Source: Neophaeotheca triangularis (taxonomy: Eukaryota). Taken from it: a stretch of DNA of 64,000 bases. This document shows, one piece after another, positions 358 through 40,624 of this stretch; position 1 is the first letter of the stretch, and the number at the start of each line of letters is the position of its first letter. The notes under the pieces are model-generated. The model was not told the origin of the DNA and did no database searches. It worked only from the letters and a program-made list of their open reading frames with translations. The translations under genes were made by a program, and so were the position numbers. The stretch spans positions 124,001 to 188,000 of the forward strand of contig BAAIJX010000024.1 of the NCBI GenBank assembly GCA_054600435.1. The letters run 5' to 3'.

Positions 358-1665
358 CTATCTTGCCATTGCACGAGATAGACTCTGTCGAAATCGTGCA
401 GCTACACCGTCAGATGCAATGTTCCTCCCTATCAGTACAATTTTTCCGCCACCTCCAGACCCATCACTTCCACCATTGGCGTCGATCAGCTCAAAAATCT
501 CTCTTACGCCTTGAAGCACCTTCACAGAACCCGAATGCATTGGCAACCTCCCCTTGACGCGATGAACCTCCCAACTACCCCTTTCCCCCTCGCACGGTAG
601 CTTACCCTCCCATAACGTCGATCGAAGCCATCTATCCAGCTTCGGTAGCGAAGCCTCATCCAGAACGGGTACATCCAGCACAATAGTTCCAATTGCCGGA
701 TCCAAATGACTATGCCCCTTGCTCGCAAAATCTAGCGCATCGGCAGAAATATCATCGTAAGCATGCAAATCCAGCACCAGCCCTTCCAGCTCCGGTATCC
801 GGCTGTGGTCGGTCACCTCAACCTTCGCAAGAGCATTGATACTCTGCACCCTATCCTGCACAGCCTGCAACTCCGCCTCGGAAACAAGATCAGCCTTGTT
901 AATAACAACAACATCGGCGTGAGAAATCTGTAAATGCGCAGTCGACAGATGCGGGCCATGAGCGTGTGAGCCGGCCTCATCATCCTCGACTTGCTCCTCG
1001 CCGACAGGCTCATCCAGACTGCGTAAAACATTCTTCGCATCTACGAGCGTCACAATGCCATCGAGGTAGATTGTCGAGCCCAAGCCCTCGTCAACCCAGA
1101 AGAGGGGAGCGAGATTTCCGGGATCAGCCAGTCCAGTCGTTTCGAGAAGAATGTAGTCGAAAGTCCCGCGCCTCTCCATCAGCGATTCGATGGCATTGAC
1201 GCCGCTGTCTTTGACCGAGCAGCAAATGCATCCGTTGGCAAGGTCAAGCCATTCTTCCGCTTTGGTGTCGCCTTGGGAGACGGTCAGGGAACGCTCGATG
1301 TCGCTGCTATTGCCGAATTCTGTTATATAGATAAGGAGTCAGTTGATTTGACTGAGGGAGTATATTTTTGTTGGTGCTGATTACGGCACTAACCTACCGT
1401 TCAAAATTACTGCGATTTTCTTGCCATGGCGTGCTGTGAGGATGTAATTTAGGAGGGTGGTCTTGCCTGCTCCTAGGTAACCTGCGTGGCCGTTTAACAA
1501 TTGTCCCGTCAATGAAGATCAAGGTCTTCTATATAAAATAAACTCACCCGTGATGATCGTTATGGGAACTCTAGAACTCGGAATATCTGATGAGCTAGCT
1601 GTTTCGTCGACAGCCTGGCCATCAGCGTCGACAAGCATAGGAGGAGCATCGTCGTCGTCGTTCAT
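358..1665 (-). CDS. ZNG1: CobW/COG0523 zinc-metallochaperone GTPase (Zng1/CBWD-like); exons 1665-1548, 1481-1398, 1319-358
   Basis: The spliced product reads [16 protein letters not shown] (Walker A), AVILN|EFG, GCICC (CxCC), [17 protein letters not shown] and a C-terminal CobW_C-like HRVKG/QGVRE. The N-terminal PPMLV resembles the Zng1 MetAP1-docking motif. Two GT-AG introns restore the frame. Confidence 0.92.
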
Positions 1666-1998
1666 GTTTGCGTCAAATGGAAGAAAAGATTCGCATACTA
1701 CTTTAGAGGAGGTCAAGATGGCATATATGGGTCGCTGCACAAAGTGCAGGTGGTCTCGCTCTGATGAAGCGATCGCTGGCGCCGGCTTCAACCGTAGAGC
1801 CTCACCGTGCTGCAGGGACTAGATCAAAGGAGCGGGAGCTTTACTTATGCCCAACACTTGCCCTCTGCGTTTGCTTTTATAACATTTGGCCGTACTGATC
1901 TTCAACGATACAGAGTCTCCTCACAGTGCAAAGCGACCCTCCTTACTCCCACCTTAGTCCTCTTTTGGCCGCGAGACATCCAACCCACCGCGTACAAC

Positions 1999-3654
1999 AT
2001 GGCTGCGCTCTCACCATCAGCCTCCCCACGACTACCCTCACCTCCCCCTATAGCCGAAGACCAGATAGGACCAACATCTCCAGGTCTCTCTTTATCAGAA
2101 GACACCAACAAGTTCCCAGGTGCGGGCAATGTCGACACTGGCGCCTCAAGAAGAATACGGCCGGGTACGAGAGCAGAGGATATGGCGGAGGGGCCTCCTT
2201 TAGTTGAGCTACAAGACGTATGTCAAGGATACCCCCTTCCAAAATCTCTGCTCGACACTAACAGTAATTGTCAGATCGACAGCGCTTTCCCCCTTACTGA
2301 ACATCTCAAAGCGCTCCACCACTCCCACACGCACCCATCGCACACCCTTTCAACGACCCCCATGACCTCGGACCTCGCCAGACAGCTCGCGCAACCCCCA
2401 CCCAACACCAGTAAAGAAATTTGGCTCTACGAACTCGGACGCTTCCTCATCCAAAAAACCAACGCCATCATTATAGCCCTGTTCGCCGATTCGCCCTCCT
2501 GCTCCGCCCAAACATGCCCCGAAATGCGCGCTTCCGAATGGCAATACCTTTGCGCCGTCCATGATCCCCCTAAATCCTGCAGCGCTATTGACTACTGCTG
2601 CCACACTCTCGACTGGGCGGCCTCGACCCTCACAGCGAGTAAGATGTTTCCCAGCAGGCTCGGCTTAGGCAGCGGCAGTGGGGTCGGCGCCGCCAGCGAC
2701 AAAATGCTGCAACAGCAGATGAAGGAGATTACCAACATTTTCCGCCGCGTCTATCGCATTTACGCCCACGCGTGGTTCCAACACCGTGAGATGTTCTGGC
2801 GTGTAGAGGGGAATACGGGGCTGTATGTCTTTTTCAAGACAGTATGCGACGAGTATGGCATGATTCAACCGGAGAACTACACCATTCCTCCGGAGGCTGA
2901 GGGTCTGGAGACGTCTAGAGATGAGCAGAGCGCGCAGCCGACTTTGCTGAGGAGAGACGAACTGCCTATCCACGGCCCACCCGATCAGAACCACCCTCTG
3001 GAGCCAATCGGCAACCACACCGTCGCGGCCGGAGATACTACGAAGAGGCACAGACACACACTTTCGGATCGCGCAAGCTCGGTCTCGACTGTGATTCACG
3101 AGGAGGCAGAGGAGGATGAGGAAAATCAAGGACGGGGACGCGACATCGACGATGACGACGACAAGCCCTCGCTGGAGCGGCAGGCTACGAGCCTCCGTGA
3201 TTTCGCGCAGAGTTTGAGTGATAGGCAGCAGCAGCAGCAGGCTGACAACAACAACAACAACATCAACATCAAGCAAGAAGGGGAGAAAGAAGGCGATGGA
3301 GATGAGGAAACAACGCCCGTGGATCCGAAACCGAGCGTGATTACCAGGTCTGAAACCATCACTCCCGAGAAAGCTGCTGCAAACGGCGACACGGACGACG
3401 CTACGCCCGCTTCTGCTACGGATGATGTTGCCGACGCTGCTGAATCGGCAGACGTTACAGTTGTGGAATTAGAGGTCAAGCCTGAAGAGGAAGGGGAGAC
3501 GGAGGGAGACGCTGGCAAGGAGGAGGTCGAAGCAGATGCAGAAATTTTGAAACCCGTTGAGACGGCCTCTGCGTCTCCAGTCGCGAACGTCGTGAAGACT
3601 GAGGAAGCGGAAGCCAAAGCCGAGCAGGCTGATGGGAAGAGCGTTGGTGATTGA
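1999..3654 (+). CDS. MOB4: Mob4/phocein (MOB3) STRIPAK subunit with acidic C-terminal extension; likely intron 2218-2274
   Basis: Contains IWLYELGRFL, CPEMRASEWQYLCAVHDPPKSCSAIDYCCHTLDWAA, FPSR and IFRRVYRIYAHAWFQH, typical of phocein. The 57-nt intron runs GTATGT...ACTAAC...CAG. Confidence 0.92.
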   Translation: MAALSPSASPRLPSPPPIAEDQIGPTSPGLSLSEDTNKFPGAGNVDTGASRRIRPGTRAEDMAEGPPLVELQDVCQGYPLPKSLLDTNSNCQIDSAFPLTEHLKALHHSHTHPSHTLSTTPMTSDLARQLAQPPPNTSKEIWLYELGRFLIQKTNAIIIALFADSPSCSAQTCPEMRASEWQYLCAVHDPPKSCSAIDYCCHTLDWAASTLTASKMFPSRLGLGSGSGVGAASDKMLQQQMKEITNIFRRVYRIYAHAWFQHREMFWRVEGNTGLYVFFKTVCDEYGMIQPENYTIPPEAEGLETSRDEQSAQPTLLRRDELPIHGPPDQNHPLEPIGNHTVAAGDTTKRHRHTLSDRASSVSTVIHEEAEEDEENQGRGRDIDDDDDKPSLERQATSLRDFAQSLSDRQQQQQADNNNNNINIKQEGEKEGDGDEETTPVDPKPSVITRSETITPEKAAANGDTDDATPASATDDVADAAESADVTVVELEVKPEEEGETEGDAGKEEVEADAEILKPVETASASPVANVVKTEEAEAKAEQADGKSVGD

Positions 3655-5218
3655 ATTCAAAAGAGAGCGAGCGCGGCGGAACTCTCGTTATCAAAACGGG
3701 GTCCGCACGGCTAGGCTCTCCCCTAGACGGTCTCTTCCTTTTCCCTGCGCAGCAACCGGCCGCACTCACGTACCTTCGACGCCAAACCGAGGCCAGGCGG
3801 AGCGAGCAGAACCAGAGACACCAACTGCTGCCCGCTCTTCGCGCCCCGAGGAGAGCGAGGACGTACTGACAGTGCCATCTGTACTTGCTGGCGCAGACAG
3901 ATGCCACAATACCTTACTGCTTGTCCTTTCCACAGCCGCAGGGTGACGTGGATGGCGGTAGAGGTTGGAGAAGTAGATAAATTACTGTAATGATACCCCG
4001 AAAAGCGGGACACCGCTACCTCTAGAACAAGAAAAGCTACTTTCCCATTTTCTTCTGGGGTTGTTGTGTCTCTCGGGCCTCCTTTTTTTTTTCTTTTTCT
4101 TTTTTGGTCTATTGTATGAAGACTTGGAAGCAACGAGGAGACAGTTCAGGCGTTCGAGAACAGGGGTGAGGGTGGAAACGATTTATTTCCAAGTGTTCAT
4201 GCAACGGCATTAGACATCTCTTGCTACTCGAGACTTCGCTAGCTGATCAGGGAGCTACACTACACTACACTACCACCCGGACCATTTTAGACACAGGCCG
4301 ACAACGATAAGAAACCGTTTCATCCCGCCGCTCAACCCGCACCACCTCGTTTTCGCCTGCCCGTCACGCCTCTTGCTCTATCGCATGGCGGGAGTAGTAG
4401 AAAAAGCCCATCTGGCGTATTCGCTAGCTGGCTACATACTTCCTCCCAATCCATTGGGGTCCCGGGCACAACCCACGCCAGAGCCCCTCACAAACTCAAG
4501 CTTCCCAGCCTTTTAGCAAAAAGGGCATCGCAAAACAAACGAAGCGAGCACAAAAGAAGTTAAAGAGCAAAAAGGAAAGAAAAAGCAAATGGTATCCCGC
4601 AAGTGTGCTCGCTCAACGATTGAAAAGACAAAACCGCTTGTTCAAATGGAGTTGATCATAGTCCCCCGTCCCGTTGCTCCTCTTGCTCCGCTTGTTAACG
4701 CCGTAGTCGTACTCGTAGTCCTGGTCCTGAATTTGCGATTTTTTGCCCTAGCGTTGTGTCTTGCATTCAATGTCTTGTTTGAGTTCTTGCTCTTGGGTCC
4801 CGTTCTGCGCACGGTGTTGAGCCTGGCGGTGTCGTTGTATACCTAGCGTTAATGGTAGTGATGTATCGCTTTTTTTTAAGCCGGTCCTTGCGCGGTCGCG
4901 ATCGTTGGCAGCCAAGTATGCGTCAGAGGGCGATGCTCAAGATTGGACTGTCCTGTGGATGCCATGCAATAGTGTCGAACACAGTGACGGTGCTTCTTCC
5001 AACGCTGTAGCCATCCATTTCGATTCTACTTTTCCAACCTCAACGTCAATCCAACACCTAGACCATGCAGCCAACACCAACGAGACCCAAACATGCAACG
5101 CCTCATATCAAGAGCGATGCTCCAAGTAAACTTCATTCACCACAGCATGTGGTATCATCAATAACCCTCCCTTTGCATCTTCCTTTCGCTAGTACTGCCA
5201 AAGGTACTGCTAGCCCCT

Positions 5219-6966
5219 TCATCTCGAATGAGGTGTCCCACTAGCACTCCCACTCGTCTGCGTCATGCTTCTCGCCAAACCAGGATCGCCAAAGATGTGC
5301 GGCCCAGGCCCACACGGCTTCTGCGCCGCAGAATCCATAGGGCTCTTGCTGCTCGCCTTCTCGGAACCGCCGTTGCTGCTTTTCGTTCCCCCGTCATCTT
5401 CACCAGCATGCTTTGGATCGCTCGCCCAGACAGCCACCCCGTCCGCGGGCCACGATTGGCCTGTGGGTTTGCCCTGTCCGTAGTCGGCCATAGAACCGTT
5501 GATGCCTGTAAGTGCCCAGGCGAAGATGGCCTGGTCGCGGATGGCGCTCATGAAATCCGATGAATCCGGGCCACCAGCGTGAACCGGAGTGGCGCCGGAA
5601 TCGTGACGCGCGCCTTGCGGGCCGAGAGATGGTGCGAAACCAGAGCCAAAGCCTGCGCGGGCCCGGGTCTCGACGGGTGGGAGCATAGGTTCGGTGGCCC
5701 ATGGGGCGGCGAAGAGACCGTTGGCATAGACGGATTGGGAGGGGCGGTGGGTGGGGTGCGGGATCAGAGGGCGTGCGCGCCGGAGGCAGACGACCAGACC
5801 GTCGGATGTGCAGGAAATGACGGCTTCGAGTTCGATAGGTTCGGTTACGATATCGTTGGGTGGTCCACCTTCCGAGCTCGGAGACTCGCCTAAGGAGGAC
5901 ATGGAGGATTCGGCGTGCCTTGCTTGGCCAAAAATGGCTTCGTGTGTGTCCTGATTTGGCATGCTATCACCGGATGATGTTCGCGAGTTGGGGCCAGTCT
6001 CGTCCACGTCCATACTTTCATCCGAATGAGCGGCATTCGATCTGTTGGAACTCCCACTGTGCATTGAGGAATTGTTGTTAGCGAGGTGCACGCCACCGTC
6101 TTCGTGATCTACACTCTCTTCTGTTGTCATTTCTTCGTCACTATCGTCAACTGGGTCGTGAGTTGGGTTGTCGTCTATCCGTGGGTCTCGGAACCAGAAT
6201 CGCAAGTACGCTATCGAGTCATTGCCTTTTGCATTCTCCAAACATTTGACTGCATCTTGCAAGCAATTTTGCGCAATGCAATAGTAGAAACTTCGACCTC
6301 GCATCGCCTCGGCTGGTATACCGATGACATCCTCCAGGCCTCGTGTGGCGTACATGGTCGTGAGGGTCCGTGTAAACCTGTTTAGAAAGAGTGCGGCTCT
6401 GGGTTCGTGCTCTTGCTCCTTTGAGGAATCTACAAACTTCTGTGAGATGTGCGACAGCATGTGGTATCGTGGGTCGCGAGGCGATGAAGAGAATATCCGC
6501 CGTACGATTGGCGCTTCCAGTGCTCGTCCTATGCAAGTGTCAATGCTTTGGCCTCTTGACCACGATTCCCACCGGTATACTCACGTTCACTGTTTGTCCC
6601 TTTCATGTAAATGCTAGTACACACAATCATCACGTCGTAGACAATGGTAAAACAGCATTCGCAGCCCACCCACTTCCCCTGCTTGTCCTTGACTCTGCAA
6701 TATGCCAGCACCGCAGCCTTATCCATAGACACTCTCTTTTGGTGAAATTGCTGAGCATAGGGTAGTTCTTCGGGTGGGAAGAAATCCCAACATGACCGAT
6801 TGACGATTTCATCTGGAGTGTAGCCGAGAATGTCGATGACTGAGTCTGAAGAGTACAGGATGCGTGCTTCGGGCGTGAGATCTGCGCCATATCGTCAGCA
6901 ATGGACAGGCCGCGGTGGTGATGCAGGCGGCGACACACCGTGAATAGAGATGAAGGTGGCTTCCAT
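5219..6966 (-). CDS. PAS-domain protein (two PAS-like regions, no obvious effector); exons 6966-6939, 6881-6585, 6528-5219
   Basis: The spliced N-terminus MEATFISIHD|LTPEARILYSSDSVIDILGYTPDEIVNRSCWDFFPPEE...CECCFTIVYD is a PAS pattern. A second PAS-like stretch reads TMYATRGLEDVIGIPAEAMRGRSFYYCI. Both introns are canonical and restore the frame. Confidence 0.8.
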
Positions 6967-8490
6967 GCTTGCTAGTCACCTGCTGGGCGCAGGGTGGCTT
7001 GAGGCGGGAAGACTTGACTTGGGCAAACAGCTGGTGCTTGCTCTTGTGCTCCGTCTGGTTCAACACTCGTTCAGCCGTTGACCGTTACGCGCCCTTCTTG
7101 ACCGCACGTCCCTCGGTGGGAGCAGGGCGACGACGCCGCAGGCGTTGTCCTGAAAGTCGCGCCCGACAGTGATGATGCGCTCGTTTTCAAGGCGATAGCT
7201 TATCTTGCTGGCTATTCAATGGCGGAGTACTGAGCGGTAGAGTGTCAATATCGGAGGTGAGAAGATGATAGTTAGAGGCTTGTTGAGACGAACATCAGAG
7301 ACCGGGGCAGGCAGGTATTCGAGAAGTCAGAGGGCAGGAAGTAAACGAGAGCCAATCAGGATTCGAGAAGGATGGAGAAGGGAAAAGCGACGGGTGGCGA
7401 ACAGAGCGAGGGAGGTGGCGAGGGAGGTCGGAGGGAACAGGCACGTGAAATCAGGTGCCGGACTGATATGCGAAGTGCCTGACGAAAGAGGGGTCGGTCT
7501 CGTGTGTCGATGCAGGGATGGTGGGTAGTGGGCAGTAAGGTAGTGAGGCGAGCGGGAGGGGTTGATGATACGATAGTACTAGGTAAGGTAGTATTCGAAC
7601 TACCTTGACTTGAAAGTACCTGTAGTGGAAGTAGTTGTTGGTGAAAAGCAGAGTCGGGGAGACAAACGGGACAGGACCAAGCGAACCTTGGAACCTTACC
7701 CAAGGTTTGGTTAAAGAAGGCGCAAAAGTAGTACGTCACAGTCTACACTCTACACACGGCCGGGGGACAGGACTCTGTGAATCGTGATCACTGACAGGCT
7801 TTTATTATTATAGTAGTTAAATCACCCAAGGCACCTACTGTACCTACCTGGACTTACCTTACCTTACCTACCTTAGCTATACCTACACTACTACCTATTC
7901 AACCTAGGTATTTACCTAGTTACACACCTTAGCTATAATCAAACTGCCAAGCGTCAATGTGCCCTACCTAAGACTCTACCTACTACAAGTACCCGCACCT
8001 TAGTATGAAATGGGACCGACAAACGGTAACGGTCACTACTCCGTCTCCGTCTCGGTTTCACGATTATCATCACCTGGATTGTGGTTTACTAGTCGGCAAA
8101 ACATGCCTGCCCTGCCTCTGTCTCTGTCTCTTGCTCTCTTCGCATCTGAGATAATAAAGTAGTAGCTCCTACTCCCGTCGCTTCACCCTTCATCGTCACC
8201 TCAGGCATGCATGTACCTAATAACGTGGATAATACGGGAGGCTCACGAACCCGGTCACACGTTACATAGTACTTGTGAGCATTACATGCACGTGAACTTG
8301 GCAACGTATTCTGCTAATGCATAGAAGCTACCTACCTCAGGTACTACTACTGTGCCTCCACTTCGCGTAGAGCTGCATAATAAGGTAAGCCCTGTATCAT
8401 GACTCGCGTTATTCCCCCTTCTATCAGATTACTATAGTAGGTACGGTATTAACATTGAAGTTGAACGCAACACGGCACCATAACAGAGTA

Positions 8491-8573
8491 GGCAGTAGGC
8501 AACAAGCAACAGGCAACGGGCAACGGGCAACGGGCAACGGGCAACGGGCAACGGGCAACGGGCAACGGGCAAC

Positions 8574-8607
<34 letters not shown>

Positions 8608-8609
8608 CA
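8491..8609 (+). repeat. 7-bp minisatellite GGCA(A/G)(C/T)(A/G), 17 units with a core of 8 perfect GGCAACG
   Basis: Read directly. GGCAACG x8 spans 8512-8567, flanked by GGCAACA, GGCAGCA and GGCAGTA variants. Confidence 0.95.
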
Positions 8610-9313
8610 GACTTCTCCCACGACATACATGTATCTCTCTACTACCTTAAGGTTCCATGCAATAGCCCATACCGTCTTGCATACCTTATAGCACGACCAT
8701 CAATCACTACAACTCCCCAACTACCGTACGCCATCTTCACTCCCTCCCCTACTTCCTCTAGCTCCTTATCCAACTTGTGCCCGACACACAGAGCTGCAAG
8801 GCGCCTGCACTAGTCGTGCCGCCACCCTCGAACCTCGCCCAGCCCTGCAAGCCACTTTACGCTACTGCAGTAGTGATTGACCCGGCGTGAAACTGAAGTC
8901 ATCCCCTCCGGATCTTGCCAACCGAGAGAGACGACCGGAAGACAGCCCGGCGAACCAATTTCACACCTCCTTTGTATACTTACGGTACTTACCTTACCCT
9001 ACATCACCGCTACCGAGCCGACACAGCTTCATCTAGCTCCGCCCTGCAATACCCCCTCAAAGCCGAACGACTCCGACGCTAGCTTGCTTTTTCTCTCTTC
9101 ATCGGCGTGCCGACTGCAGCTCGGCATACAAGCGCGTGCCGACGTTGGGCAAACGTCGTCCCATTCAGGTCCCTGCACGGCAACTTCCACTACGAAAACG
9201 CCTGTACTTCCAAGCGCTGTGCAAGGATTTGAATGAAATTCCGACACATTGCACAAGCCATCGTTGATCCTCCAGCACTCCCGCAGCCTCCCACACATTT
9301 CACTCCACCAGGC

Positions 9314-10964
9314 ATGGCGCCGACGGGGTCTGACGTCTTTCCAACTTTGCGTACTTGCCTCAGGCTTCAGGTAGGTAAGCTCTCTGCAACTCGTCGGTCG
9401 GCATGTGTCTTGACTGGTGTTCTAGGTAAGTGGGAAAGACGACGTCAGCAATCAATCTCTCTACGATGTGAAGTTTTACCCCTGGCCGACTGCAGACGAC
9501 GATGCCATCTTCGTTGTCACGGGTGAAAGACAGACATTCATTTGCTGCATCGACGAAACTCATAAAGATGGCTTCGAGATTCTGCATTGGTGGAAGGATG
9601 CCGATCAAGAGACTTCACAGAATAGTGTTGCTTGGGCACGTGATCCCGAGACTGGGAAACCGTTGATATGCCTGGCCGGTCACACACCCAAGTACGTCAA
9701 GATCATAGACGCCGAGACTGGTAAGATACAGAGGGTCATCACTGGGCATGGAAGAGGCGTAAACGATTTGGCCATTCACCCGCTGTCACCTCACATTCTG
9801 GCAACTGCTGCAGAGGACCACAATGTTAGGTTTTTCAACTTGCATCCCAAATACGCAAAGCAGCCATGCGTGCACATTCTCGCTGGTGGAGGCTCCAAGC
9901 AACCACTGATGGGCTTCCGATTCCACCCCAATGGAAAGTGGATGCTTACGGGAGGGATGGATACTGCTGTCTGTCTTTGGCATCTACCACCTGTAGAAGA
10001 GCTAGCAGATCCGCCATTCCAGCATTCGGACGATGCCGACAACGCGCTCGGCGAGCCCGAAATCACCTACTACCCTCACTTTGCGTCTACAGAAGTCCAC
10101 CACAACTATGTCGACTGCCTGGAATTCTACGGTGACCTAATCATCTCCCGCGCGGCAAAAGACATGAAGGATAAGACGAACGAAATCCTCATCTGGAAAA
10201 TCGATGGCTTCTCCGCCGACGCAACCGCACCAACCGAGCCCCCCGTACCCCGACCAGGCGAATGGACGCGCTCCGCCTTCGCTCATGGTCCCTCTACCCG
10301 TGGTTTCCAAATCCTCCTCACCCTCAGCATGCCGGAAACCACCAGCTTCTACCTTCGCTTCAGCCTGCTGCACCAGCCCTCCCTCCGCCCCATCCTCGCA
10401 ATGGGCAATCAAGCCTCCAAAGTCTGCATGTGGGACCTCTCGCAGCTCGAACTCGGCGAAGACCCAGCTCCACCCAAATCCCGAGGTCCCCGTCGCGGTG
10501 GCGGCCGAGGCGGCGCCTCTTCCAGATCCAAAGCCTCCATCTCCGCCTTCAACCTCCTGACAACGTCAAGCCGACGCGGGGAATCAGTTGGGAGCGATGC
10601 AACCCCAACGGGCACCGCGACACCCACAACCCTCCACGACCAGCTCTCCTCCACCGGCGACATGGCGTCCTACCCAAACAGCCACAACACTCCGCCCACC
10701 GGCGGCAACGAAACCCCAACTGCAAACAACGGCAAGAGGAAATCAAAATTACAGCTTGAAGATCCATTCAACCCTCTCAAACCGCATTTTGCCCAGGTCG
10801 CGCAGACGGATTTGACGAGGGATTTTCGCAAGGATAGGCATTTTGATACGAGGCAGATGGCTTGGAGTCCTGATGGCAGGTGGTTGGTCGGCGTGGGGCA
10901 GAGAGGGATGTTGTGTCTTTTCGGGAGAGAGAGGGGGGCGGGACTGTTGGGAGCGGGGGATTGA
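9314..10964 (+). CDS. EED: PRC2 WD40 subunit EED/ESC; exons 9314-9370, 9426-10964
   Basis: Contains LYDVKFYPW, ITGHGRGVNDLAIHP, FHPNGKWMLTGGMDTAVCLW, YPHFASTEVHHNYVDCLEFYGDLIISRA, FYLRFSL, ILAMGNQASKVCMWDL and RQMAWSPDGRWLVGVG, which match the fungal EED pattern. The 55-nt intron runs GTAGGT...TAG. Confidence 0.88.
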
Positions 10965-11330
10965 GTGAGGTGGTGGGAACGAAAGGGGTTGGGAAGAACG
11001 GGGAGTCGCACGAAGGTGCGGGTAAGAGCTGGGTTCGTATGTCGCTGTGGTAGTGGATGACGAAGGGCGGCAGTCTTACGAGGAGTCTTGGCCGAACATT
11101 CCAAGCTTTCCAGAGCTTTTGACACTGCCGTTGTTCTCCAAAGGAGGCTGTCAACAAGAGCACTGTTTAAATGAAGCGTGTGCGTGAAGAGGTCTTATGG
11201 CGGACGAGCGTCAAGCGGTGCATCCTTTTTCATTACTTTCATGCATGTTTACTTATTATTTGTTGGTCATTAGATAGCTCGTATCCCTCCTCCCAAAGTT
11301 AGCTTTACCTCTCATGGTACAGCATGACCC

Positions 11331-12418
11331 CTACAACTCCACCACAGCCTTCTGCGCACTCAAGCCCTGACGATTCGCATCCATAGCCGCCTCAACACCC
11401 TGCAAGCCCTTACCCTTGACCACCGGTGGAGGCAAACACTTCAGCTGCCCGCTCTCCAGCGCCTTTTCAACCCAGTTCTCCCAAATCGGGTGCGTGCTCT
11501 CATCAATACCAAAAAGCTGATGCGTCTTGACGTTCGCAGGCACCTCAGCCGAGATGGGGAGGACAGCGGCATAATGCCCGCCACCGAGCTTGGAGAGGAT
11601 CTGCATGCTTGGGTCCTGGCTAGCTTCCTTTTCGGAAATGGCGTCGTAGAGGCCGACGAACTCGGAGCTGGGCAGATCCTTGACGGCTTTGACGACGTCG
11701 TCGACGACGGTGGCGCTCTTGTAGTCGACGACTGCTTTGGCGCCCACGGACTTGCAGAGCTCGTGGTTCTTGGCGGAAGCGAGGGAGACGACGTCGATGC
11801 CGCTCGCGGCCGCGAGCTGGGTCACGAGGATGCCGACGGAGGAGGAGCCGCCCCAGAGGACGACGGTCTTGCCGGCGGGTTTGGGGCTGTGGCTGGGCTG
11901 CGGCAGCCCGAAGCTCTTGTAGAGACCGACGGCGGCCGTGTCCAGGGCTAGCGGGATGACGCAGGCGTCGTTGTAGGAGAGGGACGAGGGGATAGCGGCG
12001 GTTTTGCCCGCTTTGACGCGCGTGTACAGCGCGAAAGCGTTGTCTTCGGGGACTTGGGTCGTGAGGCCGTGGCAGTGGCTGCGGGTTTGAATTGTTAAGT
12101 CTGTATGTTTGCTATTGGACCGGGCTCCATGGGTGGGAGGGATGTTTTGGAATCGACTTACGCAGTCACGCGGTCGCCCTTCTTGAACCTGCTCACGCCG
12201 CTGCCGACTTCGTGGACTTCGCCTGCAACGTCGCAGCCCACGACGATGGGGTACTTCTGGACGTACATGCCCGTGTCTTGGATTTTCCAGTCGACGGGGT
12301 TGATGGCGAGCGAGTGGTTCTTGACTACGATTTCGTCGGCTCCTGGTTTAGGGAATGGAGCCTCGCGGACCTGAGTGGGCTGGCCTTTGCCATCGATGAA
12401 TGCTGCTTGGTTCGACAT
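11331..12418 (-). CDS. MDR-family oxidoreductase (enoyl-reductase-like, ToxD/CipB type); exons 12418-12162, 12078-11331
   Basis: Contains VKNHSLAINPVDWKIQ, IVVGCDVAGEVHEVGSGVSRFKKGDRV and the NAD(P)-binding VLWGGSSSVG. The intron runs GTAAGT...CAG. Confidence 0.9.
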
Positions 12419-13436: not shown

Positions 13437-14970
13437 TCACTCCCGAATCCAATCAAACACAAACCGCGCAAACACCTTGGTCGGCCTCTCAAAAACCCAG
13501 TAGAACACCTCGCCAGCAGCGAGAGTGACAAGGAGGGTGGCGATGAACGCAATGCCGGTAGCACTCTCGTAGTTCGCCAGGTCCTCGCCCATGTTATCCG
13601 TGCACAGCTTAATGCCGAGGGTGTAGATGATGATGGACTGGAGGAGGAAGTACGCTGGAATAGTCTGTCAGTGATGCCATTTCTTCGGCTCAGGAAGGTT
13701 GTCTTACAGAATGATCTCTCGCCGAGGAATCTGAACACCGGGTTGGCGAAGATGGCCCGCATCCAAGCGAAAGTCTCCAGCAATAACCAGAACCCAATGA
13801 TGATTAGGTAGATGTCAGCGCGAAGCTGTGGGTTATTGGGGTCGTTCCATGTGTATAGACCGCCAGTGTCGTACAAACCGGTGTGGTATTTGATTTCCTC
13901 ATTAGCCAGCTCTGGCAGAGCGGCCACCCAGATGAATTGCATGATCCACCCCGCAGCCATGACAAGTATGTAGAGAGGCCACGCCGGGAATCTGATAGGG
14001 CCTAGTGAGATTCCGGCCTTGGACTTCTCGCGGAAACCCATGTTCATGATGACGTCCGCTAGCAGTAGGCCGGAGATTGAAAACCACGCCCATGAGTAGA
14101 CCCACCAAGCCGTCAGGATGAAGAGAAAGGCGCCCCAGACCCTCCAAGACTTCCTGGTGTATGGGATAATAACCATAGCGACGAAGACTGTGTAAGACTG
14201 CTGGAATATAGCAGTCACGATCCACATGGTCTGACTGGGGAAAGCCCAGTTGCTGTGAACATGTTAGCCACGCAGTCTTTGCAAATCAACGTGGCATATC
14301 CGACTCACCCTGACTGTGTTTCAAATCCGTGGCTAATCCAGAAAACGTTGAAGAGACTGTTGAAGTTTGAAAGCGAATTGGGCATGATGTACATGTCTGC
14401 AGACATTGAAACATTCGAAGTGGCATCGGCGAAATCGAAGAGGTACTGGTTCCCAAGATTCAGAGAAAAGACAATGTAGAGAACAATGAAGCACACCGCC
14501 ACGGGTATCCATAGTCTGATGCCACGGCGGAGGACAACGCTCATCAAAGTCAAGTTGGTTGGGTCCAAAAGGAACGGCAGGCAAATCGTCCGGGCCGACA
14601 GGAAGATGATGGATGAGTAGATGAGCGAATCGTTCCAGAAAAGGACGGATAGCGACTTTCGAAGGGCAATCTGAGGCGCAGGTCCTGTATCGTTTGCTGA
14701 GCCTTTGACGGTGGCAGGGGCAAAAGTTTCGAGGAAAACCCATAGGAAGCTCATGATTGCCAGACATCCTCGCATGCCAACAAGGTAGTTTTGTGAAGGA
14801 TCATGAGGACTCTTAGTAGCAGCAGCCTTCTTGTCGGCCAGTTTCTGAGGCATCACGGGCGCCAGGAAACGCGGCAAGTTTTTGTCTCTTCCTGGTGCTT
14901 CCTGTTGATCTGGAGCCCCTTCCATGGCGACACCTTCAGTATCGTGGCGGTTGTACGTAGGACGGTACAT
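13437..14970 (-). CDS. Stand-alone acyltransferase-3 (OafA/YrhL-like) multi-pass membrane protein; exons 14970-14309, 14252-13708, 13654-13437
   Basis: Contains YLVGMRG (DGLRG-like), FLSAR, RRGIRLWIP (RxxR), QTMWIVTAIFQQSY, FLGERSF|SYFLLQSII and FYWVFERPT. It has many hydrophobic segments, and two canonical introns restore the frame. Confidence 0.8.
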
Positions 14971-15517
14971 GGTGGTCAGGCAATGCGTAACGAGTGCGGA
15001 GTCTTGCCCTCCTGTTGTCGCACTCGTAGGCGGAAGTGAGTGAGGTGGTGGCGTATGTCAGAATGCAGTTCAGTGATGATATTTACGCGGTGTTGTCAAG
15101 GAGGTGCTATCTTGACTCCTTGAGCAGCCCAGCTTAGCTCCGGGCCGTCTGCAGGGACCGTCTGGCGGACTTGTTGAAATCCAATTGTTACCTAGGTACC
15201 TAGCTACTATCTACTACTGACCGGAGGCGTTACAGTCGGGAGTCGGGACCTCACCTAGCTCACCTGGGCAGCCCGTGGCAGCTAGCCTCTCACGCCTCCC
15301 GTCCCGTCTTCAGCCGCTAAGCGGCTTGGAAGCTACGTGGAGCATAGCGCCAAGACCCCACGGGTGTCTCATTTACGGAGCAGTCACTCCCGTCTTGTCC
15401 CCGTCCTTCTTCGCAGGGCTGGCGGTGCAAACACCCGACGGCGAGAAACAGCCTCCCCTACTACCTCCACTTACAGACAAACAATTGTTTCGAAACACAC
15501 ATCACTCATCGACAAAC

Positions 15518-17179
15518 ATGTCGTTCCAACCAGGCTCGCCCATGCGTGGCGACGAACGTGGGAAGCACCAGGGCCTCGATGTCGCAGAGCAGCCTGTGAC
15601 CTCCAGTACCGAATATGATGGCTACGCCTACCGGACTACGATGGTAGAACCTCAGGCGCCTCAGCCACAACAGCAAGGCGCCCTGAACAGGATATCAGCG
15701 GCTATAGGCAGCTGGACGCCGGCAGTGATGTTGGTGACTTACTTCATCTTCTCCATCGCCTTCTACACGCTCCTCAATGACTACGCGGAGAAAGTCTTCT
15801 GGTTTTTGCTACTCACCATCGCCACCATCACGGCCGGCTCGACAGCGTTCGAGGCCTACGACAGCATGAGCCTCCACTCTGAAGCACGGAAATCCATCGC
15901 CAAAGCTGAGGAGAAGGATTCCAAGACTCTCACTATTGCCGAGGAACTCCCTACTCTCGATCTCATTTTTGACAACGACCTTGATCAGAAACTAGACATT
16001 CAGCAACTGCGCCAATTCCTCGAAACCACCACGTATCCGAGGGAGAAGTTACGACTTATCGTACTTTCAACCCCCACCAACCAAATCTCTCCATTTGAAG
16101 GCTACAATAGCGGCGAAACGTTATTCGTCAACGTGCCTCATTGGTGCTCAGCATCACTTGGCTCCAGACTCACCTACGCCTTCCAAGCCAGCACTCCAGC
16201 TACCATCGCTGCAATCTTTACTGGCGATCAGACACCGCACCCCCATGCTCCGCTCTACGCAGTCTCGCGTCTTGTCCAGGACGCAAAGATCAAGCTCATC
16301 CAGGGTCGTAGGGTGCTAGCACCGCAGTCATCTTCTTTAATCGCTTCCCTCGCCAGCTTAGAATTTGACTTTGAATACGCTACTCTCAGACCCGGCCGTA
16401 CCAACACATGGGCTCTGCCCGTAGCAAACGGCTCCAACACCTACTGGAGGTCCGACGTCCTACAACAAGCAGCTGCAGATATTGCCAACTCTTTCGGCCG
16501 CGGCGAGGACCTGGGCTTTGCCGCTTTCTCCAGGTTCGCCAATGCGAAGAACGATATGAGCGTCATCTCCTACGAGCCATGCGCGCCGGGTTGGTTTGCA
16601 TACTGGAGGCGACAAGTACAGCATGCCAAAGATTCGTGCGTAGCGACACTGAGATGGAGTAAGCTCGCGTTCATGCCGACTGGGAAAGGCAACCCGAAGA
16701 GAACCCTGTTGACACGCCTGGGTGTCGTATACTGCCTGCCACTACAGCGAGTTGGCGCCCACGCCGTCTTGCAGTACTTCTCCATGGCTCTCTCGTTCCT
16801 CTTCACGCAAGCTCCAAGCTCAGCGGCAGATTTAGCCTACTTGATCTACTTTCCCTACACTATTTCGATTTGGTTCATCGTTGGAGGGTGAGTCTTCTCG
16901 AACAGCCTCACACGAAACGCCATTGCTAACTGATCAATCAGCCTCGTCTGCATCCTCTCCACCCTCCTCATCGCCTACAAGAACCGATCGGAGTTTGTTT
17001 CCTGGTGGTCTTTCCCGTTGAGTGCCCTACTCTACACGCCCGTCATCGTCTTTTGGTCTGTAATCGACTTCTATGCGCAAGTTGGGCAGTTGGTAAGCAC
17101 ACTCCGTTCACCATCGAAGACTTTCAACCTCTCTTTGCAGTTGCTGACAGTTAATGTCTAGGTGGACATGTGTGGCTGA
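15518..17179 (+). CDS. Membrane glycosyltransferase family 2-like protein with degenerate catalytic motifs; exons 15518-16887, 16942-17092, 17162-17179 (last exon uncertain)
   Basis: Two N-terminal TM helices precede a GT-A-like region (ELPTLDLI, YPREKLRLIV, IAAIFTGD, IQGRRV, LEFD, NGSNTYWR, ISYE), followed by C-terminal TM helices. This is the layout of processive GT2 synthases. Confidence 0.75.
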
Positions 17180-18100
17180 GAGTCTGACTGCTTTCGCATG
17201 CTTGAGGAGACACGTAGACTATTATCTTAATGCTAATATGTTATGTTGCCATGCTTGTACCCCATTAAATGATGGACAAGGGTGGGCCGTGCTGCGATAC
17301 AATAGGAGGGGGTATGCGTCCGTATCACAAATGGTATGCTCCGTAGTGAGACAGCGTGTTTTCTGTTGGCCCATGCAACGGGCCCCTCGGCAGTGGCGCC
17401 TTGTAAGGCTGTCTTAGAGTTGGAATTGCATCACACTTTATGTACCTAGGTATTGTATAGGTAGGTACTTTGTTGATGTACATAGTGAATCCTTTCTCAG
17501 CAACAATGGAAGCAAAAAAACGGTCAAATTGCATGTGTTCGTCGCTATTATGTTTACTTGCAAACCGGATGTCCAGGTGTGTCCAGATGCAGTCGAGACC
17601 ACAGTAGACGGGAGTGCAGGTGGAGGTCCCCATGCAAAAATCAATAGCCCGATGCCCGGACGGGAATGATGGATGGAACTCGGGGCAGCTCTTGGCGTGT
17701 CGTAAGCAATGCAACTAGCCAAGGTACGCGGGCGAAGGTAAGAGAAAAACGGAACCTTACAAGGTACACCCGCCGTCAAGACCTCATGATAGGAGGTCCT
17801 CCTGGTTACCTAGGTACCCGCCAAGCTCTGTACAGGCTCCAAGCCTCCTCCCACGAGCCGACATCCTTGGGAGGGTCTGCCATTACCCGAAGTAAGTACA
17901 TAGTGTGCAATAATACCTCCTAGGACACAGCAACCGGTAGCGGTGGTACTAGGAGGTACTCCAGCTAGTACTGTACTCGGTTGCTAGAGTAATTGTTACT
18001 ACTCCTCTGTAAGTGGCAGACTTCTACCTCCGCCACCACAACAACCGCTACTCGCCACTATACTGTCGTTTCCCTCCTTCTCCCTCCAGTGGCCGCCGCA

Positions 18101-21100
18101 ATGCCGCCTCCTTGGGCGCGTCTGCGTACGGTAGCGCTGCTCTCATGCATCTTCTTCGTGTCACTCGCTCTGGCTCAAAACGGCAACAACGACGACGACG
18201 ACGACGATGACTCGGCATCATCAAACAGCACTCGCGATTGTAACTGCGGCTTCGTCGACCCCACCACAGACCTCTTCTACACCGACTCCTTCATCACCTA
18301 CTTTAACGAGACATCCTCCATACCGGACGAGATCTTTACCGTGAACGAGTGGGACAACAAGTATGAGAAGGGCAGGTACATCTACTACCGCGAGGGCGCG
18401 GATCCGGACAATGTTTACTTCATGGACGGGCAAGATTGGCCGCAAGAGTCCTGGCTCAACCTCAACGTCACGGAGTGTCCGGAGGATGGAGACCATCTTT
18501 GCGAGGGCGCCGAACTGCAGACAGTTCGGAAGGACATCAAATACGGTACCTTTCGTGCCTTCATGAAGTCGCCCGGTGCAGGAGTGGGCGGCAGTGCCAT
18601 GAGTATGATTTTGGAATACAACGAGACGGAGTCGGCCGAGCTGGATCTGCTCAACACCAACGATCCTGGAAACATGGCGAGGGTGCAGACCGTCCTGGCC
18701 AACAAGGATCCGGATCTCAGCGCCGGTTTTAACTACACCGACCTGGAGAGCGACGATTTTGTCGGAGATCTCGAGCCCTGGCAGTGGGTTGCGTACCGCA
18801 TGGATTGGACTGAAAATGGTATTGATTGGTACGCGGGCGAGAACAGGCTGCGGACAGTCTTCACCAAGAATGAGACTGTCCCTGTTGTACCGCTTTCTTT
18901 CTACTTGAAGCACTGGTCAAATGGCAACGAGAACTGGATGGAGGGGCCACCGTCAGCCGACACCACTGCGTCTGTGGGCTGGGTTCGAGCCTTCTTCAAC
19001 TCTTCGGTCACAGGTGGGTCAAATTTGCCTTCGGACTGTAGCGCCTCTCAGCGGTGTTCTACCGAAGACTGGACGTTGCGCGTCACAACCGACTACACAG
19101 AAAGGTCGACACGGGAATGGGATCCGGTGCGAGATGGCGAAGACAGTGGAGATCAATCTGCGGGAATCGCACTGATCGCGATCAGTTTGGCCATCACCGC
19201 GGCTTTGCTCATCCACTTGGCTTTGCGCAAGCTATTCGTGAAGAAAGACTCGACAGCACTTCCCCGCCGTTCAGGAGCTCCTATCAACGAGATGGAGCTG
19301 CAAAAGATGAAGAATCACGCGGCGACCGCCAGTACTGCTACTCTTTTGGCGAACCAGGAGCAGAGTGGACAGCGGACGCCTCAGTTCATCGGGACGCACG
19401 GTAGAAGTGTGAGTCAACGGCCACTTCTCGGTCAAGATGGGCCTTACGACTCGTACGCTAGCGGCACCAACACTCCCCAGCGAGGCCAAGTGGCCGGGCA
19501 GCACAATATGCAGAGCCCATACGGAGATCCCTTTGCAACCCCAGGTGCCGAGAGGCACGACCCTATCATGCCCGCAATGGCGGCAACCACAGTGGCGGCG
19601 ACGGCGATGCCTGCAGCAACTTATGCTCAGGACGGCTCCTTTATGTCGCCAAATATTCCTGGCACGACAAACCCAGATCTTGCTTCGACGGGCCAAACTG
19701 GCGCACAAGCGGCAGCTACAGAGCAAAAAGCCGAGGGTGCGTCCGCCGCAGCGAATCCAGGTGCTGCACCTGCCGCAATCGCTCCGCAGAGAATGAGAGT
19801 CGACTATCTCGCCGGCCTGGTAGCGATATGTTCGCTACTAGTGTCAGCCACGCATTTCGTTCTCACGTTCGTTCCCTCGGCCATCATGGAATACCTCCCT
19901 CGACACTACGAGAGCGAGTTTTGGGCAAGAGGGTCGTTCGGTCCATTCTTCTTCAACGGTATCTGGGTTGGTGTCTTCTTCACCACCTCGACCCGATTTT
20001 TGATCACTGGCTACCTCCGTAACGGAAACCTCAAGGGTATCGCGGAAAAGATTGTCTGCCGTACTCCACGTTTGATGATTCCCATCACTGCAGTCATTCT
20101 CCTTGAATACTTCCTCATGGACCTCGGTGCGGTGCACTATCTCCAGTACATCCCCTCTATCACATGGTCCACCTGGCCATGGACAGAAGTCTACACCAAC
20201 TTCGGCTACTTTATCAACGAGACCTTGCAACTGGTCTACTTGATCCCCAATGCAGCACCTCAATTAACCTGGAACTTCTGCACCGGTGTCCTCTGGACCA
20301 TTCCCGTACAGCTCCAAAACTCTTGGCTCGTCTTCCTCGGCGTAGTGATTATCCGGCAGATCAAAACACCGTGGAAGCGTTTCGGCTACTACGCCTTCTG
20401 CATCCTCAACCACTGGTACGCCCTGTCCTGGGGCTCATACTTCTGGTTCGGCATCATGCTCGCGGACCTCGACATCACTTACAAATACAAAAAATCCATT
20501 CAACCCAACCCAGCCATCCACTACCCCCTCCTGACCGTCGCCTCCGTCCTCGTCCTCCTGTCCCTTGCCACCGGTCTTTTTGGCTTCTGGACCGACTTTT
20601 CTTTTGAGACGGCCGAACGCAACATCCACCCAGAGCCAATGACGGGTCTCAACTACGGTCAAACCGACAGCGCAGGCTACCCCTCGTACACAGAGCCCAA
20701 ACTGAACGGCATCATCTTCGCAGTCTTCAGCCAGTACATCGTCGAACTCTCGCCTTGGGTACAAGCCCTGCTCTCGCTCAAAGTCTTCCTCTGGCTCTTC
20801 CCCCACGTCTTCACCATCTACCTGATCCACGGCCTGGTGCAGTGGAGCATCGGCAGCGTCGTCTGCGTCTACTTTGCCGGCCAGAGTTTCCCCTACTGGC
20901 TCAACATGCTGCTCACCGCACTCATCACTTACGGCATCCTCTTCCTCTCGCTCCCCATCGTGACGCCCGTTATGGAGTTCTTGGGTAAAGAGTGCACGAA
21001 GAACATCTGGATATCCGCCAGTACCGAGCCCGATCCCAAGCGCCCGACTGCTTGGCCTTTTGCCGCTGAGGAAGTTATTCCGAGGGTTAGCAAGGAGGAC

Positions 21101-21127
21101 AGCAGGAGGGTGAGGGATGGGGTTTGA
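18101..21127 (+). CDS. GH16-like (ConA fold) ectodomain + TM + acyltransferase-3 fusion protein
   Basis: A signal peptide is followed by CNCGF, GAELQTVRKDIKYGTFRAFMK, YRMDWTENGIDWY and KHWSNGNENWMEGPP (fungal GH16-like). A TM helix and low-complexity linker lead to RVDYLAGL...H, FFTTSTRF, RTPRLMIP, GVLWTIPVQLQNSW and FTIYLIHG (AT3). The ORF has no introns. Confidence 0.85.
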   Translation: MPPPWARLRTVALLSCIFFVSLALAQNGNNDDDDDDDSASSNSTRDCNCGFVDPTTDLFYTDSFITYFNETSSIPDEIFTVNEWDNKYEKGRYIYYREGADPDNVYFMDGQDWPQESWLNLNVTECPEDGDHLCEGAELQTVRKDIKYGTFRAFMKSPGAGVGGSAMSMILEYNETESAELDLLNTNDPGNMARVQTVLANKDPDLSAGFNYTDLESDDFVGDLEPWQWVAYRMDWTENGIDWYAGENRLRTVFTKNETVPVVPLSFYLKHWSNGNENWMEGPPSADTTASVGWVRAFFNSSVTGGSNLPSDCSASQRCSTEDWTLRVTTDYTERSTREWDPVRDGEDSGDQSAGIALIAISLAITAALLIHLALRKLFVKKDSTALPRRSGAPINEMELQKMKNHAATASTATLLANQEQSGQRTPQFIGTHGRSVSQRPLLGQDGPYDSYASGTNTPQRGQVAGQHNMQSPYGDPFATPGAERHDPIMPAMAATTVAATAMPAATYAQDGSFMSPNIPGTTNPDLASTGQTGAQAAATEQKAEGASAAANPGAAPAAIAPQRMRVDYLAGLVAICSLLVSATHFVLTFVPSAIMEYLPRHYESEFWARGSFGPFFFNGIWVGVFFTTSTRFLITGYLRNGNLKGIAEKIVCRTPRLMIPITAVILLEYFLMDLGAVHYLQYIPSITWSTWPWTEVYTNFGYFINETLQLVYLIPNAAPQLTWNFCTGVLWTIPVQLQNSWLVFLGVVIIRQIKTPWKRFGYYAFCILNHWYALSWGSYFWFGIMLADLDITYKYKKSIQPNPAIHYPLLTVASVLVLLSLATGLFGFWTDFSFETAERNIHPEPMTGLNYGQTDSAGYPSYTEPKLNGIIFAVFSQYIVELSPWVQALLSLKVFLWLFPHVFTIYLIHGLVQWSIGSVVCVYFAGQSFPYWLNMLLTALITYGILFLSLPIVTPVMEFLGKECTKNIWISASTEPDPKRPTAWPFAAEEVIPRVSKEDSRRVRDGV

Positions 21128-21530: not shown

Positions 21531-21602
<72 letters not shown>
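21531..21602 (+). repeat. (TC)36 microsatellite
   Basis: Uninterrupted 72-nt TC run, read directly. Confidence 0.98.
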
Positions 21603-39577: not shown

Positions 39578-40624
39578 TGCAACGATTATGGCCTTGATAC
39601 TCGTCTCAAGATAGCAGCAAGACGGCAAGTGGTCATCAGTCTGCTGAGTTTGGGAGTGTCGTGCGGTGTCAGCGAGGTGTAAGTGGGAGTGGGAAGTGTA
39701 ATGGTGAGTGGAAGAGAGGGAGAGCAGTCGAGGAGAGGTGGCTCATGATAGCTGCCGTCAGCCACGGCATGGCATCAGACACCCGCCGGGTCGACGAGCT
39801 CCAAGAGGTAACCCGAGGGCAGTAGTGAGGCGGGCATGTGATGCTTGGAAACAGCCAGCTACCCCGCTGTGCCCGCTCTCGCAGAATCCGGGGACTCTCC
39901 GCATGACTTCATCCAATCATACTGGCTAGAATCCGATAACGCCCGCTTACATGATGTACACGCCTTGAGTTAACTACTTGTACCTGTTGCTGGCTACCTA
40001 GGTATGTACTTGTTATCTAGGTACGGTGTTATTCGAGTCTGCCTTGCTCTACAGCCCAGAGTAACTTACAATCCACCGCCACGAGACACTCTCCACGATC
40101 TCGGTACACCATTCGAGACATGACAACCGATACCAACCTACGCCCGTGATAGATGATTATGCATCCAGCACATATGGTCCCCACAACGGCGGCAAAGGCA
40201 CAGTAGTTCTCCTAACCACGCTACTACCTGCTGTTGTGGGTCCTGGGAACAACCGTCGCAATGGCGGCATCCCGTTCTCAACTCCGATCACGTGCCCGAT
40301 CTAGACTTCGAAGGTAGGCCTTTGAAAGAGAAACGTTTGTCGAGAACAAGAGGCCGCAGGGCCAATAGCCTTGTCCACGCCTAGTCAGGCTGCATTGCGA
40401 CCCACTTCAAAAGGCCTTACAAAAACGGACCCGTGGTTCTTTTGCAAAAAAGGAAAGGCGTAGGTATTATCCGATGTGAAGAGCTGCGCGCCTTCAACGC
40501 GCTACCTATCGCTCATTAAGCTCCTCTCCCTGGTAGTGCTTCTGGGTTTGGTGTTTACAAGACATGGAACTTCCTACTCGCAGATACGATGGCGGCAGGA
40601 CGCTTTCCCCTCTCATCGGCTCCA

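Follow-up and report, generated by a model that had tools for sequence, protein, structure and literature searches.

Which task unites three adjacent genes for membrane proteins, each with a tie to glycans, in the fungus Neophaeotheca triangularis? To our knowledge, only a few of the glycans in fungal walls or matrices have been assigned to a dedicated gene cluster. We analysed a window of 64,000 nucleotides (GenBank assembly GCA_054600435.1, contig BAAIJX010000024.1, positions 124,001 to 188,000 of the forward strand), in which gene A encodes a stand-alone acyltransferase-3 (AT3)-like protein, gene B a relative of glycosyltransferase family 2 (GT2), and gene C a fusion of a domain like glycoside hydrolase family 16 (GH16) with an AT3 domain. 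The trio is real, conserved and apparently undescribed, and of the exopolysaccharide kind that combines a synthase with AT3 proteins, which is apparently new to fungi within the literature searched. It is almost certainly one functional unit, and its function would be the synthesis and O-acylation of a glycan.

The trio, its linkage and its paralogous copy

The genes and their parts lie as follows, in window positions (aa, amino acids):

join(14970-14309, 14252-13708, 13654-13437), overall 13437 to 14970, minus strand: gene A, stand-alone AT3-like membrane protein, 474 aa, 3 exons
14308-14253 and 13707-13655, minus strand: introns of gene A
14971 to 15517: divergent intergenic region of A and B, 547 bp from ATG to ATG, candidate shared promoter
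join(15518-16887, 16942-17092, 17162-17179), overall 15518 to 17179, plus strand: gene B, predicted pseudo-GT2, 512 aa, 3 exons
16888-16941 and 17093-17161, plus strand: introns of gene B
18101-21127, plus strand: gene C, GH16-like/AT3 fusion, single exon, 1008 aa
18233 to 19135, plus strand: GH16-like domain of C, residues ~45-345
18638-18652, plus strand: ELDLL of the GH16-like domain, at the site of ExDxE in active GH16s
19157 to 19765, plus strand: transmembrane helix (residues 353-380) and low-confidence linker (385-555) of C
19793 to 21025, plus strand: AT3 domain of C, residues ~565-975

The sequence-only reading of this DNA had described three adjacent membrane-protein genes, with A and B head to head about 550 bp apart, and both points stood: the models are intact, the DNA is fungal, and short GT-AG introns with branch sites support the models of A and B. 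The 3' end of gene B has two candidate forms at 17093-17179, with intron 2 either spliced (512 aa) or read through (529 aa); database model P0001, 100% identical to B over 508 aa, is the read-through form, with its stop at the acceptor. Gene A has about eight hydrophobic segments. From N to C terminus, C comprises a signal or anchor, the GH16-like domain, a single transmembrane helix, a disordered linker and the AT3 domain.

Neither the Pfam AT3 model nor the GT2 models were matched by any exon of A or by exon 1 of B. Gene A is AT3-like by profile-profile comparison (hhalign) with the C family (probability 99.5, E 2e-23) and its Atlas features fall in AT3 clusters at 0.97; PF01757 was matched at E<=0.1 by 4 of 40 A-type rows. 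Gene B is called GT2-like because it is homologous (28% identity, E 1e-42) to a paralogue on contig C58 of the same genome that itself matches GT2 models. C matches Pfam GH16 (E 9e-5, 22.4 bits, cut-off 22) and Acyl_transf_3 (PF01757; E 8e-7, 28.8 bits, cut-off 31), and its nearest relatives among the matches listed are those of Dothideomycetes black fungi, e.g. Meristemomyces, Hortaea and Oleoguttula.

Metagenome contigs were scanned with a 107-sequence alignment of C, and the best 80 of 86 loci were kept. The partner test was restricted to the 32 loci whose fusion has 6 kb or more of upstream DNA (the other 48 have less). Both a GT2 and an A-type gene were present in 30 of these 32 and, after near-identical loci had been merged, in 20 of 21 groups; a GT2 was present in 36/38 loci with at least 3 kb upstream. 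Complete loci showed three kinds of gene order (20, 6 and 4 loci). The linkage of the trio is far above chance.

In named species, adjacency was read by eye from the relatives listed (best 120 of 213 and best 120 of 987). Among these matches, GT2 and fusion identifiers were adjacent or next but one in 12 species, which we take to belong to three classes: Coniosporium tulheliwenetii, Elasticomyces elasticus, Alternaria atra, five Bipolaris species, Monilinia laxa, Chlorociboria aeruginascens, Paecilomyces lecythidis and P. variotii. Another 11 named species had both on a contig of equal size, and no Sordariomycete or Aspergillus name occurred among the rows listed. Five species of the window's lineage have their listed fusion and their listed active GT2 at separate places, as two loci would predict. 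The pseudo-GT2 and C are annotated as one reading frame in two species (P0009 and P0027), and a GT2 is run together with the A-type gene in Curvularia model P0282. A- and C-type proteins are also present in smut fungi, where they are known as proteins, linkage aside. The unlinked orthologues that would speak against the glycan-tied unit of the sequence-only reading were not seen. That reading had also envisaged additional partners such as a nucleotide-sugar enzyme, and no fourth partner was found: in the 21 locus groups and both loci of the source genome, no open reading frame (ORF) of at least 90 aa was conserved beyond close relatives, with the limit that short or spliced ORFs could escape, and the flanks of the trio were not conserved between loci.

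Used as queries of the source genome, B, C and exon 2 of A each led to the same 11-kb stretch of contig C58. Here a GT2 gene (minus strand, 493 aa) is divergent from an A-type gene (438 aa), and a GH16/AT3 fusion (~1025 aa) follows. This GT2 keeps all catalytic motifs (DTD, TED, QRMRW and the tail WNPTAR), aligns with BcsA at E 3e-6 and matches GT2 models, which places a competent synthase in a complete paralogous trio. The competent GT2 had been expected outside the window, where it indeed lies, yet it is no missing extra part. The GT2 tree and the tree of the C AT3 domain are concordant: in both, the C58 genes cluster with the GT2-fusion pairs that lie adjacent in Coniosporium and Elasticomyces, and the window genes fall with trios found in Pleosporales, Leotiomycetes and Eurotiomycetes (support 0.84 for B, on a long branch, and 88.6 for C). 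On these trees, the window and C58 trios are old paralogues.

The GT2, GH16-like and AT3 parts

An alignment of 50 sequences was scored for six GT2 motifs. The motifs were intact in 30/31 non-pseudo fungal rows (the remaining row has a gap at DxD), kept with small changes in 11/11 bacterial rows, and lost in all seven rows of a clade (support 1.0) that contains window B. Gene B has lost YLPNE, SKAxN, DxD, QxxRW and WxPTxR; it reads TGD and has no RW. It may keep the TED aspartate, since its GED at 329-331 faces TED in pairwise alignment and lies two places off in the multiple alignment, and this aspartate is present in 4/7 pseudo-GT2 rows. The WxPTxR tail, which is gating-loop-like in sequence, ends 91 of 94 active copies and is absent from the full-length pseudo copies. 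No stop or frameshift was found in the seven pseudo-GT2 sequences compared. Those with DNA (n=3) are 39-41% identical in pairs, with a nonsynonymous distance (dN) of 0.59-0.66 and a synonymous distance (dS) above 2 or saturated; their dN of ~0.6, against ~0.3 for active copies, makes them about twice as fast. Residues common to at least six of the seven concentrate in membrane helices, namely the first two and the later ones. A dN far below dS and this helix-centred conservation therefore indicate that the pseudo-GT2 is maintained as a protein. Judged by its motifs, B is the pseudo-GT2 that it had been called, predicted to be non-polymerising and kept under selection.

For a model of the intact GT2 (predicted local distance difference test, pLDDT, 92), Foldseek ranked cellulose and hyaluronan synthases first. 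A wide fold search returned PcManGT (Z 29.3, root-mean-square deviation (rmsd) 3.2, 336 residues aligned), viral hyaluronan synthase (HAS; 26.2) and BcsA (24.2); PcManGT we take to be a lipid-acceptor, non-processive enzyme. The donor sugar could not be read from the fold matches of this model. The best NCBIfam models for the intact GT2 are PgaC/IcaA (E 3e-14) and CelA. Its model ends at the position of the BcsA gating loop, without the later BcsA helices (range 54-493 against 94-509), and a gating loop at the extreme C terminus with four helices is the layout of streptococcal HAS (10.64898/2026.02.21.705424, cited like the other papers below in excerpt).

A prokaryote scan gave 550 GT2 relatives, of which the 80 kept are 34-45% identical and come mostly from Actinomycetota, with some from Chloroflexota. 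All of the five bacterial relatives whose domains were scanned carry a GT2, four a receiver and three a GGDEF-like domain; the loci L097-L176 represent a bacterial receiver-GGDEF-like-GT2 fusion family, which among prokaryotes stands closest to the fungal GT2. Within ~3.5 kb at the 80 bacterial GT2 loci there is no A- or C-like neighbour. By sequence kinship, the GT2 is likely to be bacterium-derived and the trio to have been assembled in fungi; a bacterial origin of the whole trio was rejected, as close prokaryotic kin were found for the GT2 only and no A- or C-like ORF lies near these loci.

The GH16-like domain of C folds like lichenase (3i4i_A: Z 20.4, rmsd 2.8, 204 aligned) and Crh5 (Z 19.2), and a Foldseek search with the whole of C listed GH16 folds only. 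Active GH16 enzymes carry the motif ExDxE or ExDxxE. This was complete in none of the 107 relatives of C: the site reads ELDLL in the window and NMDVM in the C58 fusion, in a register set by a stand-alone GH16 of the same genome with EIDME. This stand-alone GH16, at L007:1501-2073 (G000:C1) and 32% identical to the GH16-like domain of C, has its EIDME intact and is a possible active relative. By its motif the domain of C is no working hydrolase; because the full motif is absent in 107/107, it is probably a non-hydrolytic glycan binder, and it should face the lumen or outside because it follows the signal or anchor and precedes the transmembrane helix. It is probably an acceptor-binding module, in place of the SGNH domains of OafB and OatA.

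AT3 enzymes carry R-X10-H in the first transmembrane helix (TMH1) and RxxR after TMH3 (PMC9833829; PMC12423673). Gene A keeps Arg67 of TMH1 and the RxxR (Arg149/Arg152), with Val78 at the position of the catalytic His; among A-type rows, TMH1 has Arg/Lys in 43/43 and His in 0/43, RxxR is present in 43/45, and the His of TMH9 is mostly absent. A loop common to A and C reads E340-x3-H344 in A (E in 37/44 and H in 38/43 A-type rows), and H843 is invariant in C. The AT3 domain of C keeps His585 and has RxxR at 654/657, with Val574 replacing the TMH1 Arg. Across the 107 ascomycete fusions, RxxR is present in all, the TMH1 His in 105 and the TMH1 Arg in none; for His585, RxxR and H910, conservation is complete or almost complete. 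The fold of this domain matches HGSNAT (8jkv_A) with Z 13.8, rmsd 5.0 and 294 aligned residues, a middling Z for a helical bundle. A wider set has the complete R-X10-H in 9/14 C-type rows, and smut-type fusions have a complete DxxR-x10-H and score above the PF01757 cut-off. In ascomycetes the motif is thus, at the level of sequence, split between the two AT3 domains, the stand-alone protein keeping Arg and the fusion His, which suggests a job shared by A and C. Because smut-type fusions retain the whole motif, A would have lost its His first and ascomycete C its Arg later. The likeness to OafA/OatA enzymes drawn earlier holds as AT3 homology; the complete R-X10-H is missing from both A and window C. 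Model P0462 (817 aa) has two tandem AT3 domains, the first with the full R-X10-H, and is either a real fusion or two merged genes.

Proposed mechanism and its alternatives

We propose that the trio works as a membrane machine, one that produces an extracytoplasmic beta-glycan of the wall or matrix and O-acylates it. The ancestral GT2, with four helices, a catalytic domain and the WxPTxR tail, would polymerise a nucleotide sugar and pass the chain through the membrane. C would grip the emerging chain at the outer face via its non-hydrolytic GH16-like domain, and its His-bearing AT3 domain would move an acyl group to it from cytosolic acyl-coenzyme A (acyl-CoA). The His-less A, with its CoA-binding arginines, would be an obligate partner, most likely a non-catalytic or donor-handling subunit. 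After an early duplication of the trio, the C58 copy would have retained the working synthase in this lineage and the window copy would have lost GT2 catalysis, B being kept under selection probably as a membrane scaffold. Window A and C would decorate the glycan of the C58 trio or of another synthase, making the window copy a non-synthesising modifier set. We put the probability of this whole statement at roughly 55%, and we hold it rather probable that the product is an O-acylated polymer. Linkage, paralogy, motif pattern, folds and selection are its directly supported parts. Of the earlier view that this module makes or O-acylates a glycan, the tie to a glycan remains, and the making of polymer by the window copy falls with the lost GT2 motifs. 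In bacteria, exopolysaccharides are acylated by the products of AT3 genes that lie next to GT2 synthases (PMC9558356), and partly acetylated pustulan is reported in lichen fungi (PMC7389562), which are among the GT2 matches listed; acylated beta-glucans, including pustulan-like ones, might be the products.

Several points weigh against this proposal. None of the three members has a known product or activity. The single best fold match of the intact GT2 is PcManGT, the pseudo-GT2 clade is placed with a support of just 0.84 on a long branch, and the dN/dS comparison is rough because dS is near saturation. One of the 21 locus groups (L084/L086) is a lone, apparently broken fusion without partners; at L084:10001-11835 (and in L086) the fusion is N-terminally short, has a stop between its domains and looks like a decaying stray duplicate. 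The TMH1 Arg is reported as essential in OafB, OacB and HGSNAT (PMC12423673), and since this residue is absent from the fusions in 107/107, the use of acyl-CoA by C may be atypical. GWT1 has neither AT3 motif and works without the TMH1 His, as HGSNAT does (PMC12423673), and HGSNAT uses a loop His (PMC13043746); A therefore need not be non-catalytic, given the loop His in 38/43 of its rows.

These last points, with the E-x3-H loop shared by A and C, make two active AT3 enzymes possible, acting on two positions or with two acyl groups as GumF and GumG do, and A using a relocated loop His. Such a pair fits the polymer proposal and replaces only the step of the non-catalytic partner. The conserved loop, the invariant H843, the TMH1 Arg/Lys and RxxR of A-type rows and the precedent of two AT3s serving one polymer (PMC9558356) speak for it; the loop His, being common to C, may be structural, and A-type rows lack the TMH1 His and mostly that of TMH9, so that we regard it as possible, though unlikely. 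A non-translocating GT2 that glycosylates a lipid or makes a short oligosaccharide, whose product the AT3s acylate in the secretory pathway, would explain why PcManGT leads the wide search and why the model stops at the gating-loop position, and GWT1, a fungal TmAT enzyme, does acylate a glycolipid. Against the Foldseek ranking of cellulose and hyaluronan synthases, the retained QxxRW and WxPTxR tail, and a GH16 cleft of a kind that generally fits a multi-sugar chain, we consider this unlikely.

The AT3-fold proteins might instead be export or assembly subunits of the synthase that transfer no acyl group. Neither ascomycete AT3 domain has the whole R-X10-H, and the literature is undecided on whether IcaC is a transporter or a succinyltransferase (PMC9558356), yet the complete motif of smut-type fusions, the (near-)invariant His585, RxxR and H910, and the retention of both AT3 genes beside a dead synthase make this distinctly improbable. 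Slow decay of the window copy as a redundant duplicate would account for the loss of GT2 catalysis, the doubled dN and the full trio on C58. It is very unlikely in the light of seven pseudo-GT2s free of stops and frameshifts, of a dN far below dS at 39-41% identity in the three with DNA, of intact A and C (C being 49-76% identical across the lineage, among the matches listed), and of the same gene order in L063-L065 and the read-through models. A role of the AT3 genes in tailoring some small natural product, as proposed for the AT3s of squalestatin and fusicoccin clusters, in which fungal AT3 genes do occur, is hardly credible: no backbone enzyme was found in 28 long ORFs scanned in the window or among the neighbours common to the loci, and the sole constant partners are glycan-related.

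A broader form of the proposed mechanism is tentative and, taken whole, doubtful: a Dikarya-wide pathway for an O-acylated beta-glycan, with a bacterium-derived synthase, two motif-splitting AT3 paralogues as a heteromer, a GH16 turned lectin and, in one black-fungus lineage, a "decorator" duplicate held by a pseudo-synthase. If true, it might supply the machinery still lacking for acylated glucans of fungi, e.g. partly acetylated pustulan.

Surroundings, literature and known systems

The window's flanking genes look ordinary, and none of them (361-12347 and 27810-61473) is common to other trios. They comprise CobW, Mob1 and WD40 genes, a zinc-binding dehydrogenase gene beside A, and 7TM-like, AN1 zinc finger, AFG1 ATPase, Rrn11, RING, SDR, SRPRB and DUF1295 genes. 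A 1284-codon open frame with strong AT skew (35891-39742, minus strand) had no Pfam match at E<=0.001, and a (CT)n microsatellite of ~35 units lies downstream of gene C at ~21531-21602. Around the C58 trio (L011-L014, G000:C58:90000-129999) are what we take to be a syntaxin-like gene on one side, an APSES/ankyrin transcription-factor-like gene on the other and, nearby, presumably a trifunctional tryptophan-synthesis gene.

The palindrome ACCTAGGT occurs in 12 copies across the window against 0.62 expected, at 7902, 12863, 15190, 17444, 17808, 28861, 29956, 32010, 35167, 39996, 56687 and 63472. It has three copies in 40 kb of C58 and is rare in loci of other species. As a trio-specific promoter motif it was rejected: three copies lie in intergenic DNA of the trio, but 12 are spread window-wide, and it occurs in 2/17 other loci, in neither case upstream of the fusion.

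In the open-licence literature, mostly judged by abstracts and with subscription papers and supplements outside its scope, we found no description of the trio or of the GH16/AT3 fusion, no coupling of a fungal GT2 synthase to an AT3 acyltransferase, and no paper that mentions locus tags BC1G_05650-05652 or Mycgr3G35809. Within it, the earlier statement that no characterised fungal pathway is built from these three parts holds. Trio proteins may be listed in the additional file of PMC2824669 on groups of fungal acyltransferases with ten transmembrane helices and among the GT2 tables that accompany the Tft1 preprint; further comparison literature, also in excerpt, comprised PMC13043746, PMC2824669, PMC8461298, 10.64898/2026.02.21.705424, 10.1101/2024.10.24.620076 and PMC9558356. 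Carriers of the GT2 or the trio include plant pathogens (Botrytis, Monilinia, Bipolaris, Alternaria), lichen fungi and black yeasts, together with industrial Aureobasidium, counted by its GT2 alone. This distribution points to a widespread, unrecognised surface polymer, and the trio genes are specific candidates for acylated fungal glucans such as pustulan (PMC7389562).

Among fungal systems, Aspergillus fumigatus Tft1 is likewise a GT2 wall-glycan synthase, for mixed-linkage glucan (PMC4344333), and lichenases are the nearest folds to the GH16-like domain of C. The Tft1 family is 70-96% identical internally and carries a switch motif (10.64898/2026.09.17.752320); Tft1 would be set apart by this motif, whose pattern was in no compared protein, and by its length of >558 aa. 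Cps1/ZtGT2 is a compact fungal GT2 with a C-terminal gating loop (PMC5653360). No BLASTP match to the trio GT2 was found for two other GT2s of the source genome, on C42 and C17. Both of these are presumably Cps1-like by their motifs, and identity of the trio GT2 with Tft1 or Cps1 is not supported. The galactosaminogalactan cluster of Aspergillus, with a GT4 synthase, an epimerase, a deacetylase and active hydrolases, is also a fungal set of synthase and modifying enzymes for an extracellular glycan; there, acyl groups are removed, not added.

Xanthan and succinoglycan are made by Wzy-type pathways. They resemble the trio in having two AT3s per exopolysaccharide, GumF/GumG and ExoH/ExoZ (PMC9558356), but those are stand-alone enzymes, whereas the trio has one AT3 fused to a GH16-like domain and one without the TMH1 His. 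The AT3-SGNH proteins OafB and OatA, and Cas1/CASD1, also join an AT3/TmAT domain to an extracytoplasmic domain that meets the acceptor (PMC9833829; PMC13043746); in C this is an N-terminal GH16 fold without the full motif, with its own transmembrane helix and a 170-residue linker, and ascomycete C lacks the TMH1 Arg. The bacterial receiver-GGDEF-like-GT2 fusions share the motifs of the fungal GT2 at the 34-45% identity given above and differ in their signalling domains and neighbourhoods. Finally, icaADBC/pgaABCD, for poly-N-acetylglucosamine, differs in several respects: the intact GT2 scores 53 bits against the PgaC/IcaA cut-off of 422, no linked deacetylase or IcaD/PgaD-like ORF is conserved beside the trio within the ORF limits stated above, and the trio has two split-motif AT3 domains, a GH16-like binding domain and a eukaryotic host. 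Common to both is a compact GT2 synthase with a linked gene for a protein that is AT3 only (IcaC), and the PgaC_IcaA model is the best NCBIfam match of the intact GT2; the split AT3 motif and the retained pseudo-synthase bear on the mechanism of AT3 enzymes and on the role of IcaC.

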